The position numbers and the translations under genes were made by a program. Under the pieces are notes generated by a model, which was not told the DNA's origin, made no database searches, and saw only the letters and a program-made list of their open reading frames with translations. A DNA stretch of 32,000 nt from Candidatus Lokiarchaeum ossiferum (lineage in GTDB: Archaea > Asgardarchaeota > Lokiarchaeia > Sigyniarchaeales > Promethearchaeaceae): contig CP104013.1 in the NCBI GenBank assembly GCA_025839675.1, positions 780,001 to 812,000 of the forward strand. The letters are read 5' to 3'. Of this stretch, positions 1 to 14,768 are shown in pieces. Every line of letters begins with the position of its first letter. The stretch's first letter is position 1.

Positions 1-52
1 TGGGGCTTCTGATAGGAATGTCCAATTATTTGCAGAAAAAACCATCCATGAT

Positions 53-1642
53 GTGATGACCAATAAAGAATTAATCTCTAAAATTTTGTCCGAAGAAGTA
101 TCAATAAATCCGGATCAAAGTGTGTTAATTGATGAATTTAATCATATTAAGGTCAAAGAATTGATCGAACGGACTCAAAATGTCTGGCGAAAAATGTTTA
201 TAGCTTGTGATCAACTCCTGTTCAAAGAAGGTAAATCGACTCTCGATGCTAGTAATGAACCTATAAATCAAATAGAATTTGCTAAACAATTCTCCGACTT
301 ATTTGGAGATAAATTAAAATATGATGCAAATATAATCCAGACATTGCTTGATTTAAGTCAGATTGGAAGAAAAACGATAAGTTCCAATCACATGAAAGCC
401 TATCGGGCTGATGAGTTTGTTCTACTTCATAATGAAATGCTTTCTTTTCTGGGAAATGCAAATCCTGATTCTCCGCTAAAACTGACTCGCGACCGATTAG
501 ATTATATTAGACAAAAGGACACTTTTTCGAGTTCCCTTACCATTTTTGAGGCTCTCATGTTGGATCAAATGAATCGCTATCTTGGTAACATGTTTATATC
601 AGAAGGTGCCTTCTATGACTGGATGAGCACAGGTTGGGTGGAGTTAAAAAGTGATTTTAATTATCGGCAATGGAATGCGCGCAGTGCCCCTCTCTTCCTC
701 AACCATTACCAAGAAATGATCTTCTATGATGCTACCAAGGCAAAAACCGCCACCCTGACTCTAACGATCAATGGGCAACCCGTCCCTGTGAAAGTGGAGT
801 GTGATTCCTATTTCGAAAAGAGGTTAGTCGATACTATTGGGGACCTAATGAAGACCTATCCAGCCGCCAATGAACGCTTTTCACGGGTGTTTGGTAGTGA
901 AATTTTCAAGCATTTGCCCCATAACCTTTTGGCGACGGTGCAAAAACAAGTTATTACGCGCGGAGGTATCAGGATGGCACGATATGATCCTGATATAATT
1001 GCTGCTTACACGGGTGAATCAGTTTTCGGAATATTGCAATCCATTGGAACACTTGCGTTTACTACCTCCTCAGAATTGAAAGAGGGAAAAATCTATCTGG
1101 ATTTAGGGCTCGTGTTTGGGGCCGTGGATGAATTTCGGGGAGTAATGATCGAAGCCTTAGGGTATGACGACTATGATCAATATGGGCAGCATTATGGGGA
1201 GAAAAAGGATAACTCGGCTCTGGCCTTGTTGGACGCCCACTTCGCCCAGATCTATGTGGCGCGGGAACAGGCCCGTGATGGCGATCCTGAATCACTCTAT
1301 ACATGGTATCAGAAAAATGCGAAATATATTGGGAAGAATGCGCCATTGCTCACCGAAAGCCAATATAAGCTGTTGATGGAACTCATAATGAAGAATCCGA
1401 ATGTACCCTTTGAAGAGCTGATGTTAAATCTAGCAGATAATTTTGAAGCTTATGGATTTCAGGATATTGAATCTGCCAAAGCATTTCAAAAAATATTTGG
1501 AATTGAAAAAGGTCCTCTTGGATATAAGAGTAATGAAAAAATGGATCCATGGTGGACTAATTATCAGAATTCCAAGCAAGGGATGATAGATGGGAGAATT
1601 AATTTGATTAATTCCCAATTGCATTACTTTTGGAGGAAATAA
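53..1642 (+). CDS. Hypothetical large protein, possibly 5'-truncated by the window edge. Its C-terminal ~170 aa (CT domain) recurs in the orphan copy at 2730..3281.
   Basis: 529-codon ORF. The frame has no stop between nt 2 and the first in-window starts (GTG53/ATG56), so the gene may begin upstream of the window. No catalytic motif recognised. A GC-enriched block at ~640..1385 sits in an otherwise AT-rich gene. A T8 tract follows the stop directly. Confidence 0.8.
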   Translation: MMTNKELISKILSEEVSINPDQSVLIDEFNHIKVKELIERTQNVWRKMFIACDQLLFKEGKSTLDASNEPINQIEFAKQFSDLFGDKLKYDANIIQTLLDLSQIGRKTISSNHMKAYRADEFVLLHNEMLSFLGNANPDSPLKLTRDRLDYIRQKDTFSSSLTIFEALMLDQMNRYLGNMFISEGAFYDWMSTGWVELKSDFNYRQWNARSAPLFLNHYQEMIFYDATKAKTATLTLTINGQPVPVKVECDSYFEKRLVDTIGDLMKTYPAANERFSRVFGSEIFKHLPHNLLATVQKQVITRGGIRMARYDPDIIAAYTGESVFGILQSIGTLAFTTSSELKEGKIYLDLGLVFGAVDEFRGVMIEALGYDDYDQYGQHYGEKKDNSALALLDAHFAQIYVAREQARDGDPESLYTWYQKNAKYIGKNAPLLTESQYKLLMELIMKNPNVPFEELMLNLADNFEAYGFQDIESAKAFQKIFGIEKGPLGYKSNEKMDPWWTNYQNSKQGMIDGRINLINSQLHYFWRK

Positions 1643-1650
1643 TTTTTTTT
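1643..1650 (+). terminator. Oligo-T tract (T8) directly after the stop of the large gene
   Basis: taa + tttttttt. Archaeal RNA polymerase terminates at oligo-T. It is followed by a TATA-like tatatataa ahead of the LRR gene. Confidence 0.35.
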
Positions 1651-1674
1651 GTATATATAACGGAATGAGAAGAC

Positions 1675-2676
1675 ATGAATCAACACAATTTAAAAGGGAT
1701 TTTACCCCCATATAATGAGGTATCAGAAGAAAAACAAAAATTCCTTGTATCTATTAAGGATATTATCTTAGATGCTTGGGAAATTTCAAAAAATGGACAT
1801 CTGATGGTCTATATTGATGAGGAAAAAATCATCAGGCAATTGACAATCGAAATGAAAGAATCATCCAAACAAGCGGAAATTGCCACTTTAATTGATAAAA
1901 TCCCCCATCATTTCAAACATCTTAATAAATTAATCCTAAATGTTGTTGGGATGGAAAAAATTCCCTTATGGCTTTCTGAACTTCACAATCTTCAACTTCT
2001 ATCAATTGGAAATGAATCCTTAGGAAAAATAGATATCGAGATTTTTTCATCGTTTCCTAACTTAAGAAGTTTATATTTAAAGGGAAGTTTCTTTTTTATA
2101 CCAGAAACTATAAAAAATCTAACCGGTTTGAAGATATTAAGTATATCTAGTGTCCCAAATCTAAAATTTTTTCCAGAAGCAATAGGCAAATTAAGTACGT
2201 TAACCAATTTATATCTTTCAAAAATTCAAGTTAGAAATTTGCCTGATTCTATTGGACAACTCGAAAATCTTTCCCAGTTATCTATTCAAGAAGCTACTCT
2301 CAAAAATCTGCCTGAATCTTTTGGATACTTGCAAAATCTCCAAAAACTCACTCTTCATGAAGTTGCTTTAGAAGAACTCCCCGAATCCATTGGAGATTGC
2401 TATCGGCTGAAGGAACTAGATATTAAGGATTGTAACAATCTCACCACCTTACCCAATTCCTTAGGAGATCTGCACAATTTGGAAAGCATTCATATCTATG
2501 GGTGTTTGAATTTGGAATCTATCCCTGATTGCATTGCAAATCTTCCTCAGCTCAAGTATGTTTATTTAATTGAAAATCACAAGTTGGAAATCCCCGTATG
2601 GACGCAAGCTCTTTTACTAAAGAAATTGGAGACTTTCAATGTAGATGGTTGTAAAACCAAGTGGATGAATCCATAA
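1675..2676 (+). CDS. Leucine-rich repeat (LRR) protein, partner 1 (333 aa): ~100-aa non-repeat N-terminal domain plus ~23-aa LRR units
   Basis: Tandem LxxLxLxxCxxLxxLPxSIGxLxxL units, e.g. LPESIGDCYRLKELDIKDCNNLTTLPNSLGDLHNLESIHIYGCLNLESIPDCIANLPQLK. ATG1675 is preceded by tatatataa (1652..1660). Paralog of 3325..4257. Confidence 0.85.
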   Translation: MNQHNLKGILPPYNEVSEEKQKFLVSIKDIILDAWEISKNGHLMVYIDEEKIIRQLTIEMKESSKQAEIATLIDKIPHHFKHLNKLILNVVGMEKIPLWLSELHNLQLLSIGNESLGKIDIEIFSSFPNLRSLYLKGSFFFIPETIKNLTGLKILSISSVPNLKFFPEAIGKLSTLTNLYLSKIQVRNLPDSIGQLENLSQLSIQEATLKNLPESFGYLQNLQKLTLHEVALEELPESIGDCYRLKELDIKDCNNLTTLPNSLGDLHNLESIHIYGCLNLESIPDCIANLPQLKYVYLIENHKLEIPVWTQALLLKKLETFNVDGCKTKWMNP

Positions 2677-2729
2677 ATTTATGTTTTACCTCTTTTTTAA
2701 CCGTTTGTAAAGAAAGGCTAGGATTAAAG

Positions 2730-3281
2730 ATGATAAGTTGCCACTCCATCTCCGATTTTTATAAAAATTTGGTGGATGAATTTCAGGGAATGATGATCGA
2801 AGCCCTCGGGTATGACGACTATGATCAATATGGGCAGCATTATGGGGAGAAAAAGGATAACTCAGCTCTGGCCTTGTTGGACGCCCACTTCGCCCAGATC
2901 TATGTGGCGCGGGAACAGGCCCGTGATGGCGATCCCGAATCACTTTATACGTGGTATCAGAAGAATGCGAAGTATATTGGGAAGAATGCGCCGTTGCTCA
3001 CCGAGACGCAGTATGGGGTGTTAATGGAACTGTTGATGACCAAACCAGGGAAATCTTTTGAGTTAATGATGAAAGATTTAGCGGTAAATTTTGACTTTTA
3101 TGGGTTCAAAGATAGAAATGATGCAATTAAATTCCAAGAATTATTTGGAATTGAAATAGATAGAAACTACCTATTTACTGGTTATGGTGAAATGACCCAA
3201 TGGTGGACTAATTATCGCAATTCTAAGTTTGAAATAATTAATGATAAAATCAATCTTTTCAAATCTGAATTAGATTTCTAA
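2730..3281 (+). CDS. Orphan 5'-truncated paralog of the CT domain of the 53..1642 protein (about 183 aa from ATG2730)
   Basis: Homology to the large protein starts abruptly at VDEF (nt 2772 = nt 1124) and runs to the stop. The 14 residues MISCHSISDFYKNL before it come from unique junction DNA. The track ORF start at GTG2661 overlaps the last codons of the upstream LRR gene and is less plausible than ATG2730. Whether it is expressed is unknown. Confidence 0.6.
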   Translation: MISCHSISDFYKNLVDEFQGMMIEALGYDDYDQYGQHYGEKKDNSALALLDAHFAQIYVAREQARDGDPESLYTWYQKNAKYIGKNAPLLTETQYGVLMELLMTKPGKSFELMMKDLAVNFDFYGFKDRNDAIKFQELFGIEIDRNYLFTGYGEMTQWWTNYRNSKFEIINDKINLFKSELDF

Positions 3282-3291
3282 AGCAAGACAG

Positions 3292-3301
3292 TTTTTTTTT
3301 T
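3292..3301 (+). terminator. Oligo-T tract (T10) after the orphan CT ORF
   Basis: A run of 10 T lies 11 nt after stop 3281 and is positionally homologous to the T8 at 1643..1650. Confidence 0.35.
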
Positions 3302-3324
3302 CTATAACAAAAAATGGTGACATC

Positions 3325-4257
3325 GTGAAAACAGAAGAATTGAAACAAATTACTTTTCCATTTTCAGAAATATCTGAAAATGAAAGAAATTTCCTAATAA
3401 AACTAGATGAAATTATAGAAAAAGCATGGAAAATCAAAAAAAAATCTGGTATGATGATACGAATAAATAATTCAGGAATATTACGAACTTTAGAAATTGA
3501 TGTAGTTGAAAATGTCGATAATGTGAAATTGATTCATCTTATTTATCAAATTCCAACCTTCTTTCCTGATCTTTTTAATTTGGGATTAAATATTTATGGA
3601 TTAAAAACACTTCCCAAGTCGTTTAATATTTTTCGACAACTGAAACAAATTTATTTGGGAAATGAATATTTAGAAGAAATAAATAAGGATTTTTTTTCTA
3701 ATTTCTCTCAATTAAAGAGTTTTGCAATCCGAGGGTTAATGAAATCAATACCGGTGTCGATAGGAAGATTATCAAATCTTGAAAGATTGCAAATCTCGAA
3801 ATCACCCCATCTACATTCATTACCACCTTCAATTGGGAATTTATCTACTCTTTTTAGTATGACAATTAAGGAAGTCTCTTTAAAAAATCTTCCCGAAACG
3901 TTGGGTCATTTGCACAATCTTCAAAAACTCACCCTTCATGATGTTTCCCTTGAAGTTCTTCCCGAATCCTTGGGTGATTGTTATCGATTGAAGGAGTTGG
4001 ATATTCGGAATTGTAATAATCTTACAACCTTGCCTGATTCGATTGGTGATCTCCATAATTTAGAATCCTTAAAAATATATGGCTGTTTGAATTTAGAATC
4101 CATTCCAGATTGTATTACCGACCTCCCACAACTCAAATATGTCTATTTTGTAGAAAATCCCAAACTGGACATCCCTGTGCGGACTCAAGCCCTTTTGCTG
4201 AAAAAATTGGAGACTTTTAATGTGGATGGCTGCAAAACCAAGTGGATGAATCCATAA
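3325..4257 (+). CDS. Leucine-rich repeat (LRR) protein, partner 2 (310 aa)
   Basis: Same architecture as 1675..2676. The first 176 aa align without gaps but are strongly diverged. Exactly one 23-aa LRR unit is missing. The last ~125 aa are near-identical, including the CKTKWMNP tail. GTG3325 is the start, because ATG3314 is in another frame and hits a stop. Confidence 0.85.
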   Translation: MKTEELKQITFPFSEISENERNFLIKLDEIIEKAWKIKKKSGMMIRINNSGILRTLEIDVVENVDNVKLIHLIYQIPTFFPDLFNLGLNIYGLKTLPKSFNIFRQLKQIYLGNEYLEEINKDFFSNFSQLKSFAIRGLMKSIPVSIGRLSNLERLQISKSPHLHSLPPSIGNLSTLFSMTIKEVSLKNLPETLGHLHNLQKLTLHDVSLEVLPESLGDCYRLKELDIRNCNNLTTLPDSIGDLHNLESLKIYGCLNLESIPDCITDLPQLKYVYFVENPKLDIPVRTQALLLKKLETFNVDGCKTKWMNP

Positions 4258-4262
4258 ATTTA

Positions 4263-4269
4263 TTTTTTT
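4263..4269 (+). terminator. Oligo-T tract (T7) after LRR gene 2
   Basis: taaatttatttttttc immediately after stop 4257. Confidence 0.3.
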
Positions 4270-4282
4270 CACTTGAATTTAA

Positions 4283-4341
4283 CTGGGATGAGAAGATCAA
4301 ATATTAGCAAAAATACATGGTCTCACCCCATCTCATCCCAG
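4283..4341. other. Perfect 11-bp inverted repeat (ctgggatgaga / tctcatcccag) with a 37-nt loop, in the convergent intergenic region
   Basis: Arms at 4283..4293 and 4331..4341 are exact reverse complements. It lies between the end of the LRR array and the 3' side of the GTPase gene. Confidence 0.4.
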
Positions 4342-4674: not shown

Positions 4675-5625
4675 TTATATTTCAGTGGTTTTTTGTTTTA
4701 ACACGCGGATAAAGGTAGAAATAGATTCTAATTGCAATTCTTTTTTGTAAATCAATCCAAAATATAATGGTAATTTCGATGAAACTTCATCTAAATAGAA
4801 TCGGGTACTATAGATATTTAAGCCTTCGAATTGAAGGTTTATCACCGGCATGATGTTATACATCTGTTCAAATTTGGTGAAAAACTTGATGAAAAGATCC
4901 CGAATTTCGATCGCATTAAATTTTGGAGATATATGATAACCCAGCCCAAAACCTTCAGGAGTGAAAACAATTGCAGCATCCAAATCATGAGTTTCTGAAA
5001 AAACCCCCAATTGAGAAGATATTTCGTCAAAAATCTGAGGATTGTCAAGCATGCTTTTTGAGAATGCTGTAATGACCCAAACTGGAACATCTTTAGAAGT
5101 TCGATACGCTTGATAGCCAAAACCTTTGCAATTCAAGATTTTATGAGCCTGTTCTTTGAATTGGGACATATTTTTCTCAATTATGTCTTGATTGGGAAAA
5201 TCGGGATCAATCTTGTTATAAAGTATTGTAATATTAGCATCTGGACTAAATTTTTTTACAGCCTCGACAACATTTTTAAAATAAGTAAGACTTTTCTCAA
5301 TCCAATCTGAATTCTGACAATCCACAACATAAAATAATTGAGCAATTTTTTTGAAATAAAGATCGGGGGACTCGAGGTATTTCAATGTGTATCGATCTTG
5401 ACCTCCAAAATCCCAAAGAGCTAATTTATGATGTAAAAATTCAGTTACTGAACGTTCCACCTTTCGTGTTGGAGTGATATTCAGAACTGCATCAAATTGA
5501 CGGAACAGAGTCTTTAAAAGCGATGTTTTTCCCGCTGCCATTAAACCTACTACGGCGATTTTTTTGGGATCATCGGGAATATCTTGTGCCTTCTTTTGGA
5601 TTTCAGTTTTTTTTTTTTCATTCAT
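4675..5625 (-). CDS. Rag/Gtr1-family small GTPase with a C-terminal roadblock/LC7-like domain
   Basis: G1 GLMAAGKTS, G3 LWDFGGQD, G4 NKID. The stretch LALWDFGGQDRY...LFYVVDCQ...KKFSPDANITILYNKID closely parallels eukaryotic RagA (LWDCGGQD...SPDAKIFCLVHKMD, from memory). About 130 aa after the G domain have an alpha/beta pattern typical of roadblock domains (DAAIVFTPEGFGLGYH). Confidence 0.75.
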   Translation of the reverse strand: MNEKKKTEIQKKAQDIPDDPKKIAVVGLMAAGKTSLLKTLFRQFDAVLNITPTRKVERSVTEFLHHKLALWDFGGQDRYTLKYLESPDLYFKKIAQLFYVVDCQNSDWIEKSLTYFKNVVEAVKKFSPDANITILYNKIDPDFPNQDIIEKNMSQFKEQAHKILNCKGFGYQAYRTSKDVPVWVITAFSKSMLDNPQIFDEISSQLGVFSETHDLDAAIVFTPEGFGLGYHISPKFNAIEIRDLFIKFFTKFEQMYNIMPVINLQFEGLNIYSTRFYLDEVSSKLPLYFGLIYKKELQLESISTFIRVLKQKTTEI

Positions 5626-12589: not shown

Positions 12590-13642
12590 CTATGAATATT
12601 CAATTTCAAAGCTCGTAGGTTGAAGTACATTGATGTTTTGAATTTTTCTGATTATAAGCATAACTTCTTGTCGTGTTATCACAGGAAAATTGTAATAATC
12701 GTTCATATATTTTGTAGGTCCTTTCTTTTCAACTCTATCTGCGATGAAAGATCGATGTTTTTCAATTCTATTTTCAATATATTCATTTATCTGTGAAGCT
12801 GAAGATTTGATGGTTTCTTGAATAATTTCACGAAATTTTTCATCGATTTCATAGCCAATAGAGTTTCTTTCTGAAGCAATTGCCGCAAGCATGGTAGTCC
12901 CTGTTCCTAAGAATGGATCCAAAATAGTGTCATCTTTTACCGAAAACATGTTGATTAATCGATAAGCGAGTTCAAAAGGATAGGCGGCGCTTCTTTCCCT
13001 TGTTTTTGAATTGTTAATACCTTGTGAAATTCCTTTAAAATCCCAAATATCTGAAAACCACACATTACGTTCTTCCCAGAAATAGGCACTTTCTCTTCGG
13101 TTTTGCTTTTCCGAATCAGATTTGAATTCCTTTTTATTTCCCTTCCGAAATATAAGAATATACTCGTGTTCTAAAGTCACATATGCCCCAGGGGGAAGCA
13201 TTCCCGAACCCATGAATTTGTTTGGGGCATTTGTTTGTTTCCGCCATAATATTTCGGGTAATGATTGGAATCCAAGGTTTATAAAACACTCAATAATTTT
13301 TGAGTGAGAGGGATATAATTGAAACCGTTTAGCTATGGTTCGGGTAGTATCTCCTATGTTAATACAAACAATTCCACCTGGTGTAAGAATTCTTGATATT
13401 TCCATCCAAATTTTATCCAATTCCAAATGCATTAAAGAAAAGGCAAGATTTCCATCTTTTTTTTCTAATGCCTCAGTTATTTTTGGATTCTGATTGGCAA
13501 AAATCTCATCCCACATCTCAATCATAGGATACGGGGGAGATGTAATTACAAGATCCACTGATTCAGGGGCAATTTCACTCATATTTTGAGCTGCTTTAAA
13601 TAAAATTCTATGCTTTGTGTTCATTCTGGGATTTTTCCTCAT
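12590..13642 (-). CDS. DNA methyltransferase, beta-class (motif IV before motif I); the SPPY motif suggests N4-cytosine specificity (N6-adenine possible)
   Basis: DLVITSPPYP (motif IV) lies near the N-terminus and ILDPFLGTGTTMLAA (motif I, SAM binding) near the C-terminus. The PF01555-like core includes LEHEYILIFRKG. The start is ambiguous (13642, 13624 or 13582), and the first two overlap the upstream gene. Confidence 0.8.
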   Translation of the reverse strand: MRKNPRMNTKHRILFKAAQNMSEIAPESVDLVITSPPYPMIEMWDEIFANQNPKITEALEKKDGNLAFSLMHLELDKIWMEISRILTPGGIVCINIGDTTRTIAKRFQLYPSHSKIIECFINLGFQSLPEILWRKQTNAPNKFMGSGMLPPGAYVTLEHEYILIFRKGNKKEFKSDSEKQNRRESAYFWEERNVWFSDIWDFKGISQGINNSKTRERSAAYPFELAYRLINMFSVKDDTILDPFLGTGTTMLAAIASERNSIGYEIDEKFREIIQETIKSSASQINEYIENRIEKHRSFIADRVEKKGPTKYMNDYYNFPVITRQEVMLIIRKIQNINVLQPTSFEIEYS

Positions 13643-14768
13643 CTAAGTGTTTTTGTACTCGATCATTTAAGTATTTCAATTCTAAAAACTTAAAATATTG
13701 CCCATACTGGAAAAAAGAGTGCCTTATTTGTTCTAAAATATCGACAAGAGCATCTCTTTTATCAGATTGAAGTTCTTCATTAGCTTTTTCTATCAATGAT
13801 ATAATTTTTTGAGATAAATCGTCAGCGTATTTCTTATTAATTCTTAATCTATTTATCATTCTAACATCCCATGATTGATTCATCAAATAATAATTCTTTC
13901 TATCATGAGGTTTTTTAATTACTTGAATCATTTTCCAATTCAAAAGAAGAGCTAAGACATCTGAAATTAAACTTCGTGCAAAATGAGTCGATTTTTCAAT
14001 ATCTTCTTGGGTCAATGGTCTATTTTCCAGTAATAGCTCCGTAGCTATCATTCTCCGTGCAGACATGAATTGTGATTCATTTAAAGTTAGATTGGCACTT
14101 AGTTGTTGATAAAACCTATTTTTTATACTGAAGAATATTTCAGATAATTCTTCAGAGAGAATAGGATTTTCTGCAATGGAATTTGAAGGTTGAGGAGGTT
14201 TCATTATTTCTTGTAAATATTTGAGATTTTCTGGGGAACTCATTAAATTATTATTAAGTAAAGAAGTGCCTTGAATTTGACCTGTATATATTAAATCTTC
14301 TAATTCTTTTGAAGTTTCAACAATAAGGTTGATGTACAGTGCTGATGATGCATAGAGTTTTTTTAGGAATACATAAAAATTTCTGAATCTGATGTGTTTA
14401 TCTACATAGGGTAAAATTTCTTCAATTAAGGGAGGGACAAAATCTGCTCTATTCTGATAGGAATCCATAATCCTTCGCAAAAATTTCAGCATAAATTCAC
14501 GAGGTGGGGTTTCTATAGAATAAAACTTCTTGCGTATTTTTGGTTTTTTTAGTTTTTCTAATTGAATATTCATTTGGATTAATTTGATGATTTGAGAAAT
14601 AGTCGTTTTGGAGTATCCAGTCAATTCTTCAATTCGATCTTGAGTTACTGGCTCTTGTTCAATAAATATTGCCATCATGCACCCAAAATAATTTTTTGGA
14701 AATAATAATCCTTGATGGGCTTCTTCCATTAATAGAATGAATTCCTTTTTTATTTCCTCTATACCCAT
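13608..14768 (-). CDS. Tandem winged-helix (GbsR/MarR-like, COG1510-like) DNA-binding protein, cotranscribed with the methyltransferase
   Basis: Two copies of the pattern 'spacer-(E/R)P(V/L)TQ(D/E)xIEexTgxSkxxISxxl..L...' followed by K(P)xxRKxxY: PVTQDRIEELTGYSKTTISQIIKLIQ...IRKKFYSIE and RPLTQEDIEKSTHFARSLISDVLALLLNWKMIQVIKKPHDRKNYYLM. Confidence 0.5.
   Translation of the reverse strand: MGIEEIKKEFILLMEEAHQGLLFPKNYFGCMMAIFIEQEPVTQDRIEELTGYSKTTISQIIKLIQMNIQLEKLKKPKIRKKFYSIETPPREFMLKFLRRIMDSYQNRADFVPPLIEEILPYVDKHIRFRNFYVFLKKLYASSALYINLIVETSKELEDLIYTGQIQGTSLLNNNLMSSPENLKYLQEIMKPPQPSNSIAENPILSEELSEIFFSIKNRFYQQLSANLTLNESQFMSARRMIATELLLENRPLTQEDIEKSTHFARSLISDVLALLLNWKMIQVIKKPHDRKNYYLMNQSWDVRMINRLRINKKYADDLSQKIISLIEKANEELQSDKRDALVDILEQIRHSFFQYGQYFKFLELKYLNDRVQKHLDEEKSQNEHKA

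Follow-up and report, generated by a model that had tools for sequence, protein, structure and literature searches.

A cassette locus resembling polymorphic toxin loci, with nuclease-like C-terminal domains and leucine-rich-repeat partners, in the Asgard archaeon Candidatus Lokiarchaeum ossiferum

The contact-dependent inhibition (CDI) and Rhs loci of bacteria encode a very large protein with a variable C-terminal (CT) module, followed directly 3' and on the same strand by a partner gene. Behind them lie tandem 5'-truncated orphan units of CT plus partner that keep a segment homologous to the main gene, and comparative evidence indicates that recombination in the kept segment can fuse an orphan to the main gene or displace the expressed CT; the orphan cdiA-CT/cdiI and rhs-CT/rhsI modules were defined and their recombination modeled previously (PMC4927057). 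The immunity proteins of polymorphic toxin systems include the known classes Imm-LRR and Imm-Ank, and PD-(D/E)xK domains are frequent among the toxins of these systems (PMC3482391; PMC6393860). Polymorphic toxin-like systems have been described as rare in archaea and mostly as imports from bacteria (PMC3482391). This article describes a locus in which the gene organization of CDI/Rhs loci outlined above is found in an Asgard archaeon. It lies at the start of a 32,000-nucleotide (nt) stretch, hereafter the window, of Candidatus Lokiarchaeum ossiferum (contig CP104013.1, positions 780,001 to 812,000), and it is a new archaeal variant of polymorphic-toxin-like cassette loci; a literature search combining Asgard archaea and polymorphic toxins returned no description of such a system in this group.

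Two other kinds of archaeal loci are comparable. VARTIG, a locus of the Thermococcales that resembles polymorphic toxin systems, likewise comprises a large protein with a recombination-driven hypervariable C-terminus and variable downstream genes, and a role in conflict, immunity or self/non-self recognition was proposed for it (PMC8416519). The giant genes of Asgard archaea, including those of the aloposon 'Otus/Ephialtes', also encode proteins of several thousand residues, and truncated, fragmented copies homologous to a giant gene were described at another genomic site (PMC8813620).

The locus consists, on the forward strand, of the 3' end of a large gene, a leucine-rich-repeat (LRR) gene (LRR1), a short orphan CT open reading frame (ORF) and a second LRR gene (LRR2). 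According to our preferred reading, to which we assign a probability of about 0.6, these genes form the 3' end of a polymorphic locus that switches cassettes; the CT would be a nuclease-type effector and the LRR protein its binder or inhibitor. The visible part of the main gene spans 2..1642 (546 codons and a stop codon). Its frame is open back to nt 2; the window edge therefore cuts the gene, whose 5' part lies beyond it, and the GTG at 53 is not the start codon; a previous inspection of the DNA without database searches (the sequence-only reading) had placed the large protein at 53..1642, a start that is abandoned here, and had correctly allowed for a longer upstream part. LRR1, the partner of CT1, is located at 1675..2676 (333 amino acids, aa) and starts 32 nt past the CT1 stop codon. 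It is followed by a linker that leads from the LRR stop codon to the head of the next orphan CT (type-1 cassette junction, 2677..2771). Orphan CT2 (2772..3281) has candidate starts at GTG 2661, which overlaps the end of LRR1, and ATG 2730, and the NCBI ORF (P0001) comprises 163 aa from ATG 2790. Its partner LRR2 (3325..4257; 310 aa; NEF87_000633) begins 43 nt past the CT2 stop codon; both the orphan CT2 ORF and LRR2 are listed at NCBI as hypothetical proteins of Candidatus Lokiarchaeum ossiferum. The array ends with a remnant of a second type of junction (4258..4329). The ORF layout of the sequence-only reading (a large gene ending at 1642, then 1675..2676, 2730..3281 and 3325..4257) is present in full.

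These genes are contained in a direct repeat of ~1.5 kb, 1124..~2686 versus 2772..~4267, recovered independently of the sequence-only reading, which had given 1124..2686 and 2772..4267; no third copy of the unit was found elsewhere in the 32-kb window. The CT1 and CT2 proteins share 69% of residues across 170 aa (E 1e-80), and for LRR1 and LRR2 the figure is 51% (E 3e-114), similarities far above chance. Identity along the repeat is strongly mosaic. The CT head (VDEF...APLLTE) at 1124..1360 is 94% identical at the nt level to the second head at 2772-3008, with 59/60 matching positions over the core, and the six head copies of two genomes share 88-97% of their nucleotides around a near-invariant core of ~110 nt; the GC content of head copy 1 is ~50%, against a background of 33%. 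The tails that follow, allele 'C' of CT1 (1361..1642) and allele 'F' of CT2 (3009-3281), show only 46% aa identity, and tail alleles A-F range between 39 and 70%. For CT1 versus CT2, synonymous divergence (dS) is 0.27 in the head and 1.38 in the tail. The ratio of nonsynonymous to synonymous divergence (dN/dS) is 0.31 for the two tails and 0.04-0.49 across all repeat segments, denoting purifying selection throughout.

The most informative comparison is with a second locus, L002, on a 123-kb ENA contig that carries three short CT-type ORFs. The L002 main gene was called at 10,073 aa, of which an uninterrupted terminal stretch of 2299 aa is visible. The end of this gene is matched by window 2-1650, the window main gene being 90% identical at the nt level to L002 5257-6914, and window 855-3035 aligns at 96.6% nt identity with the region of an L002 orphan, C. 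Identity of the window to the L002 main gene and to orphan C was scanned in 50-nt steps. Between 350 and 850, where orphan C shows no homology, the window is 96-100% identical to the L002 main gene. From 850 to 1300 it matches both alike. From 1300 to 1650 it is 96-100% identical to orphan C and 74-82% identical to L002 tail A (50% in 1502-1551), and the identity to orphan C continues across LRR1 and the junction as far as ~3035, where the next head ends and the tails diverge. The window main gene therefore equals the L002 main body joined to L002 orphan C, with the crossover at nt ~850-1300, and the two loci differ by at least two exchanges with breakpoints in or at the edges of the head. The body of the main gene upstream is 96-100% identical at the nt level between the genomes while the CT tail varies. 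In the window, the pair CT1 and LRR1 forms the expressed end of the main gene, and in L002 it is a downstream orphan, as predicted by the cassette model, which the sequence-only reading had put forward; a recombinant of the kind it anticipated, the main body joined to another cassette, was thus observed. For the orthologous pair of main CT1 and orphan CT_C, dN/dS is 0.12, and LRR1 is 98% identical to L002 LRR_C (dS 0.05, dN/dS 0.15). The genetics of cassette switching are well supported, and the position of the breakpoints supports the conserved head as the probable site of recombination. The hallmarks of such a locus, i.e., an expressed end, silent cassettes and a swap documented between related genomes, are all present.

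The order of parts in L002 is main gene, LRR_A, CT_B, LRR_B, CT_C, LRR_C, CT_D, ORF E and contig end, which amounts to three complete CT-LRR pairs, one truncated CT and one long orphan. Cassette number and order differ from those of the window, a variation among relatives that the sequence-only reading had proposed to look for. CT_C is a 5'-extended orphan with one in-frame stop in the extension. The type-1 junction of the window also occurs after LRR_A and LRR_C, before CT_B and CT_D; it was previously taken as 85 nt of unique DNA, a view that its recurrence in L002 at ~93-95% nt identity contradicts. The three copies differ at 9 of 95 nt, with an uninformative codon-position pattern of 4/1/4. 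The second junction type extends the array beyond its former end at 4267: window 4263-4329 aligns by blastn with L002 9677-9744 (E 9e-11, 79% identity over 68 nt), where the junction follows LRR_B and leads into the 5'-extended orphan C. The homology of the window to L002 stops exactly where the next L002 orphan begins. The window array therefore ends at a cassette boundary, which suggests that cassettes were lost or never added.

ORF E deserves separate mention. At L002 11550-14643, CT_D is broken off exactly at the start of this 879-aa ORF, which begins at the motif RGS..E.HV..G.V.K...DLR.L..VF.E.DI.EMIDP, which also occurs in the main gene, ~640 aa before the end. It matches the main protein at this motif (47%) and at the CT domain (28%) and is thus a long orphan of a divergent allele. 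The starting motif may mark a second, deeper point of recombination or demarcation.

Short-read assemblies agree with this organization. Logan contigs from four runs (SRR32148621-23, SRR22273277; L001, L021-L023) all break in the head core (~1258, ~2837 and ~2906), as the conserved head repeat explains, and these breaks confirm the order of the parts and the head as a true repeat. In most short-read metagenome-assembled genomes (MAGs) the locus is expected to be fragmented or collapsed, a possible reason for the small number of family members found with context.

Several features of the head and its surroundings were recorded at the nucleotide level. The low dS of the head reflects older or recurrent homogenization or nucleotide-level constraint. 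A structured RNA was considered and discarded (fold z-score 0.01, no Rfam match). The GC content at third codon positions is 0.43-0.70 at 540-1440 and 2751-3020, except for a 90-nt block at 992-1081 (0.30), whereas six further window genes have a value of ~0.27; the stretch of high GC spans the head plus ~600 nt of the main gene 5' of it. It could be due to GC-biased conversion among cassettes, including long orphans, or to foreign origin. Alternative-frame ORFs of 70-94 aa lie in the heads at 1062-1346 and 2686-2943 on the reverse strand and at 1164-1376 and 2812-3024 on the forward strand, and they recur in every head copy, L002 included; most likely they are by-products of GC-richness and nucleotide conservation and not genes. 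Scans for promoters and terminators of the bacterial type stayed at background level, their consensus being inappropriate for archaea.

The nature of the CT was approached by structure prediction. AlphaFold2 (AF2) models were obtained for the last 397 aa of the window protein, with confidence only for a core and the C-terminal subdomain, and for the last 252 aa of a relative, P0011 (mean predicted local distance difference test, pLDDT, 86.4; predicted template-modeling score, pTM, 0.87). The predicted core, delimited at 758..1261 by the AF2 models, Foldseek and residue conservation, has the restriction-endonuclease-like order alpha-beta-beta-beta-alpha-beta. It would comprise a beta-hairpin from 758, a helix with an S..E motif (CDSYFEKRL, 800-826), a strand with a conserved Asp (YLDLGLVF, 1094-1117) behind an insert of low confidence (~911-1093), a strand with a conserved Glu (MIEALGY, 1145-1165), a helix beginning YGEKKDN (1193-1213) and a strand FAQIYVA (1241-1261). 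As in PD-(D/E)xK nucleases, the order of the core is accompanied by a helix-1 Glu, a strand Asp and a Glu on the next strand; the core Asp is kept in 11/11 sequences, the Glu position is acidic in 17/17 (Glu in 16, Asp in 1), and a nearly invariant Lys (YGxKK[DE]) occupies the start of the next helix. A search of the viral structure library BFVD with Foldseek returned a phage head-completion nuclease (E 1.4e-4, probability 1.00), a phage endonuclease (2.5e-3) and entries for endonuclease I, PD-(D/E)XK, DUF2726, DUF1064 and restriction endonucleases; among the top 36 weak matches in the PDB, ~15 are type II restriction enzymes or SfsA. A PD-(D/E)xK nuclease-like fold of the CT is supported by these models, and nuclease catalysis by the CT is plausible. 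The sequence-only reading had named a housekeeping fold as an outcome that would speak against the cassette model; the structure search gave instead an unannotated family with a PD-(D/E)xK-like core. Behind the core lies a family-specific helical subdomain with APLLT, AFG and WW.N motifs (WW.N..NS in tail 1), whose helices and strands are confident in both models. The locus thereby defines a new family of C-terminal domains, in which a PD-(D/E)xK-like core is joined to an APLLT/WW.N subdomain. The short orphans start right after the Asp strand; they lack the half of the core with the helix Glu and the strand Asp and cannot encode a complete core.

Relatives of the CT were found by exhaustive HMMER search alone, a word-indexed homology search with the 546-aa fragment having returned none. 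About 17 distant relatives of the last ~190 aa were recovered, always at the C-terminus, in proteins of 120-2296 aa; a match to a vertebrate Ig-repeat protein (P0006) was discarded as spurious. In the collections searched the family occurs only in Asgard archaea (Promethearchaeota) or metagenome contigs, and it carries no annotation. With Pfam at E <= 10, the 19 CT family members examined gave nothing besides scattered single matches, such as the weak Vwaint (E 0.034) and TnsA_C (E 0.2), and a PDB-sequence profile search was empty. A scan of JGI metagenomes produced no CT relative. The family alignment is too divergent for pattern design; a hand-made DNA pattern (IG..APLLTE.Q) had 12 matches in GTDB, close to the chance estimate, in bacteria or methanogens, of which 0 were confirmed by tblastn.

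The partner genes belong to a recognizable class. LRR1 and LRR2 match Pfam LRR_14 (7e-27 and 8.5e-19, respectively) as well as LRR_8 and LRR_4, and matches to the LRR regions of XopAE/XopL of Xanthomonas fall far under the family cut-offs. No transmembrane (TM) or signal-like hydrophobic segment was detected in the LRR proteins and, judged by its sequence, LRR1 is a leucine-rich-repeat protein of the cytoplasmic type. LRR2 is one 23-aa repeat shorter than LRR1. The N-terminal two-thirds of the two proteins are 34% identical (dN/dS ~0.48), and among modules this part (25-46% aa) is more variable than the CT tails. The C-terminal 125 aa are 83% identical, with saturated dS (proportion of synonymous differences, pS, 0.72) and dN/dS 0.04; gene conversion as the source of this identity was ruled out by the saturated synonymous sites, leaving constraint at the protein level. 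The C-terminal part of LRR2 has 90% nt identity to L002 LRR_A, and the only three close relatives of this LRR subfamily are all in the window and L002 loci. An LRR gene lies directly 3' of the CT gene in four of seven lineages, namely the window, L002, L003 (two LRR genes) and L004/L005, at a distance of 79-156 nt in L003 and L004. The linkage of CT and LRR is frequent, not universal, and its recurrence in distant Asgard lineages agrees with the cassette model of the sequence-only reading. At L003 17030-19236, two LRR paralogues follow the gene for P0011, and no orphan CT separates them; duplication of LRR genes downstream of a CT gene thus recurs independently of CT cassettes.

As regards the large protein, P0011 (2296 aa, complete, from a Promethearchaeota MAG) aligns with the last ~2100 aa of the L002 main gene at 34%, and a conserved family of large proteins therefore exists. 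The first ~1180 aa of P0011 are acidic and Lys-poor, a TM region is located at ~808-837 and the last ~1070 aa are Lys-rich; the L002 main protein has an equivalent TM region. This amino acid composition suggests that the N-terminal part would be extracellular and the C-terminal part cytoplasmic. No Pfam, NCBIfam, PADLOC or PDB-sequence match was obtained for the window large protein, its CT or the last 2298 aa of the L002 main gene, and the translated window sequence contains no VENN pre-toxin motif and no visible PxxxxDPxGL.

Taken as a mechanism, the preferred reading would operate as follows. A giant membrane-anchored protein would end in a two-part C-terminal module, the nuclease-like core and the variable helical subdomain, with a cytoplasmic LRR protein encoded directly 3' of the expressed CT. 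Silent orphan units would be kept behind, each with a junction, the GC-rich head of ~240 nt and a variable CT tail, followed by an LRR gene belonging to the unit. By homologous recombination in the head, or further upstream for longer orphans, a downstream tail and its LRR gene would be fused to the main gene and the intervening units deleted or displaced, so that the C-terminal subdomain would change together with its partner. Short orphans would become functional only after fusion, because the first half of the nuclease-like core is missing from them. As to function, a nuclease-type toxin in the CT and a specific binder or inhibitor (immunity) in the LRR protein are preferred, i.e., an archaeal analogue of CDI/Rhs orphan switching in conflict between strains, and toxin/immunity, argued by analogy, appears to be the most economical reading. 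Nuclease activity, toxicity, LRR-mediated neutralization, export or delivery, and the timing and rate of switching are its presumed elements. An extension of this reading, rather improbable in our estimation, is that the system would be Asgard-own and not bacterial in origin, serving kin discrimination or interference through a giant membrane protein, possibly on protrusions, with a cassette-reprogrammed nuclease effector and an LRR binder. If true, it would represent an independently evolved archaeal counterpart of CDI and, in the lineage closest to eukaryotes, an early case of specific recognition by LRR proteins.

A number of observations weigh against the preferred reading. With regard to delivery, Pfam domains of type V, VI and VII secretion systems (T5SS/T6SS/T7SS), RHS/YD repeats and FilH are absent from the last 2298 aa of the L002 main gene and from P0011, P0015 and P0009, and no export signal or delivery machinery was seen, the N-terminus of the main gene lying outside the window and, in L002, ~7800 aa upstream of the part covered. 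Composition suggests that in the producer the CT would be on the cytoplasmic side of the membrane, a location at least as compatible with a tethered effector inside the cell as with an exported toxin. The nuclease assignment is weakened by the lack of Pfam or PDB sequence matches for the CT, by Foldseek results that are significant in BFVD alone, with nothing significant against the PDB, and by a Leu at the position of the canonical (D/E)xK Lys (+2 from the Glu). The CTs of the window, L002 and the distant relatives (P0002-P0019) all fall in one domain family, as the sequence-only reading had cautioned in calling the two CTs alleles of one domain. Three of the seven lineages have no LRR neighbor, the adjacent gene being a weak Ank-like ORF in L008 and a membrane protein in L006, and L007 having none. 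Identities of CT tails and of variable LRR parts do not co-vary (Spearman -0.43) in a sample of six module pairs that is small and confounded by mosaicism. The cassette array occurs in only two genomes, and the direction of change between them could be a deletion of A and B in L. ossiferum or a gain in L002. Finally, CT heads group with their positional orthologues rather than with the other heads of their own genome. This pattern gives no indication of very recent conversion within a genome, and recent concerted evolution of the heads within a genome was ruled out on this ground.

The alternatives were weighed against the same data. LRR domains act in recognition in NLR/TLR-type immunity, and the locus could similarly be a membrane-tethered effector-sensor for defense or self/non-self recognition, in which the CT stays cytoplasmic, the variable LRR proteins serve as ligand sensors or regulators that would release or activate it, and switching diversifies recognition. 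We regard this as possible though unlikely. It would account for the N-terminal two-thirds of the LRR proteins being the most variable part of the module with no co-variation with the CT tail, for the C-terminal ~1000 aa, CT included, lying on the Lys-rich and presumably cytoplasmic side of the TM region, for the two LRR paralogues behind one CT in L003 and for the absence of secretion or processing domains detectable by Pfam in the visible 2298 aa and relatives, and VARTIG provides a precedent for alternative readings of archaeal loci that resemble polymorphic toxin systems (PMC8416519). Set against this, no PADLOC defense-system model matches, no ATPase or NACHT-type switch domain accompanies the LRRs, the orphan units always pair a CT tail with an LRR gene, which is expected if the pair must match, and the ensemble of main gene, partner, 5'-truncated orphans and recombination is the signature of toxin/immunity loci (PMC4927057). 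Tethered recognition and toxin/immunity would account about equally well for the extreme variability of the LRR proteins and for the apparently cytoplasmic CT.

The more conservative explanations fare worse. Plain tandem duplication of the 3' end of the gene plus LRR, followed by neutral divergence with the short ORF as a decaying pseudogene, was the null hypothesis of the sequence-only reading. It could draw on the missing N-terminal half of the domain in orphan CT2, the promoter consensus scans at background, the in-frame stop in the 5' extension of L002 orphan C and the mostly single-unit distant relatives. Under neutrality dN/dS would approach ~1, instead of 0.31 for the CT tails and 0.04-0.49 for the LRR segments; moreover, neither LRR gene nor the CT2 tail is disrupted, the cassette junctions are kept between genomes, head dS is fivefold below tail dS, which neutral decay does not lead one to expect, and two close genomes differ in cassette number and order with breakpoints at the edges of the conserved heads, including the recombinant main gene. 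This explanation is largely refuted and is held to be very improbable. An artefact of assembly, with a collapsed or mis-joined repeat mimicking the tandem arrangement, is scarcely credible: the breaks of all Logan contigs in the head do show that the region is hard to assemble, yet the copies are distinct outside the head in both tail and LRR, one short contig spans the CT1 tail, LRR1, the junction and head 2 (window 1258-2837), another spans head 2, tail 2, LRR2 and the downstream genes (from ~2906), the source is a 6.03-Mb contig and L002, an independent assembly, has the same unit structure.

Returning to the systems mentioned at the outset, this locus resembles CDI/Rhs loci in organization, with clear differences. 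The host is an Asgard archaeon, and no T5SS/T6SS/T7SS, Rhs/YD or filamentous-haemagglutinin repeats are visible. Bacterial polymorphic toxin systems typically carry unrelated toxin folds, whereas the CTs of Lokiarchaeum belong to one new family of which only the C-terminal subdomain varies. The recombination tract lies inside the putative catalytic domain, and the short orphans are incomplete domains as a consequence. No transposase or integrase is found between cassettes, and co-variation of CT and LRR is not detectable. Among the features that characterize polymorphic toxin systems, a variable C-terminal module, orphan cassettes with a conserved segment and exchange with the main gene are present; unrelated toxin folds on one scaffold and known trafficking or pre-toxin motifs are not, so the locus is better described as working like such a system than as a member of it. 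In VARTIG the variable part is an Ig domain, in contrast to the nuclease-like CT with LRR partner and silent 5'-truncated cassettes reported here, and no Ig-type Pfam domain was found in the visible 2298 aa of the L002 main gene or in relatives. Aloposons are tRNA-integrated and carry tandem giant genes and a ParA-like ATPase; in the window, no tRNA or Rfam match was found and the neighboring genes are of an ordinary chromosomal kind. PD-(D/E)xK nucleases themselves differ from the CT, which has no profile match, bears Leu for the canonical Lys and a conserved Lys at the next helix, and joins the core to a family-specific helical subdomain.

The cassette locus is built from unannotated protein families and attached to an unexplained Asgard giant gene. 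L. ossiferum belongs to the small number of Asgard archaea in laboratory culture, which makes the readings testable as to surface competition or kin recognition, the role of the giant protein and the action of the LRR protein as inhibitor or sensor.

Ordinary chromosomal genes lie downstream of the array; among their products are a Gtr1/RagA-like small GTPase, a regulator of the MerR/GyrI type and a peptidase of family M20. The GTPase (316 aa, Gtr1/RagA- and Arf-like, Pfam 1e-21) is encoded at 4675-5625 on the reverse strand, convergent with LRR2; it is a eukaryote-like signature protein typical of Asgard archaea, and the other loci gave no sign of a link to the cassette locus. Further downstream, at 12590-14768 on the reverse strand, the gene for an N6_N4 DNA methyltransferase is followed by a gene with a faint MarR_2 match (from contig L021), and the two may or may not constitute a restriction-modification or regulatory pair.

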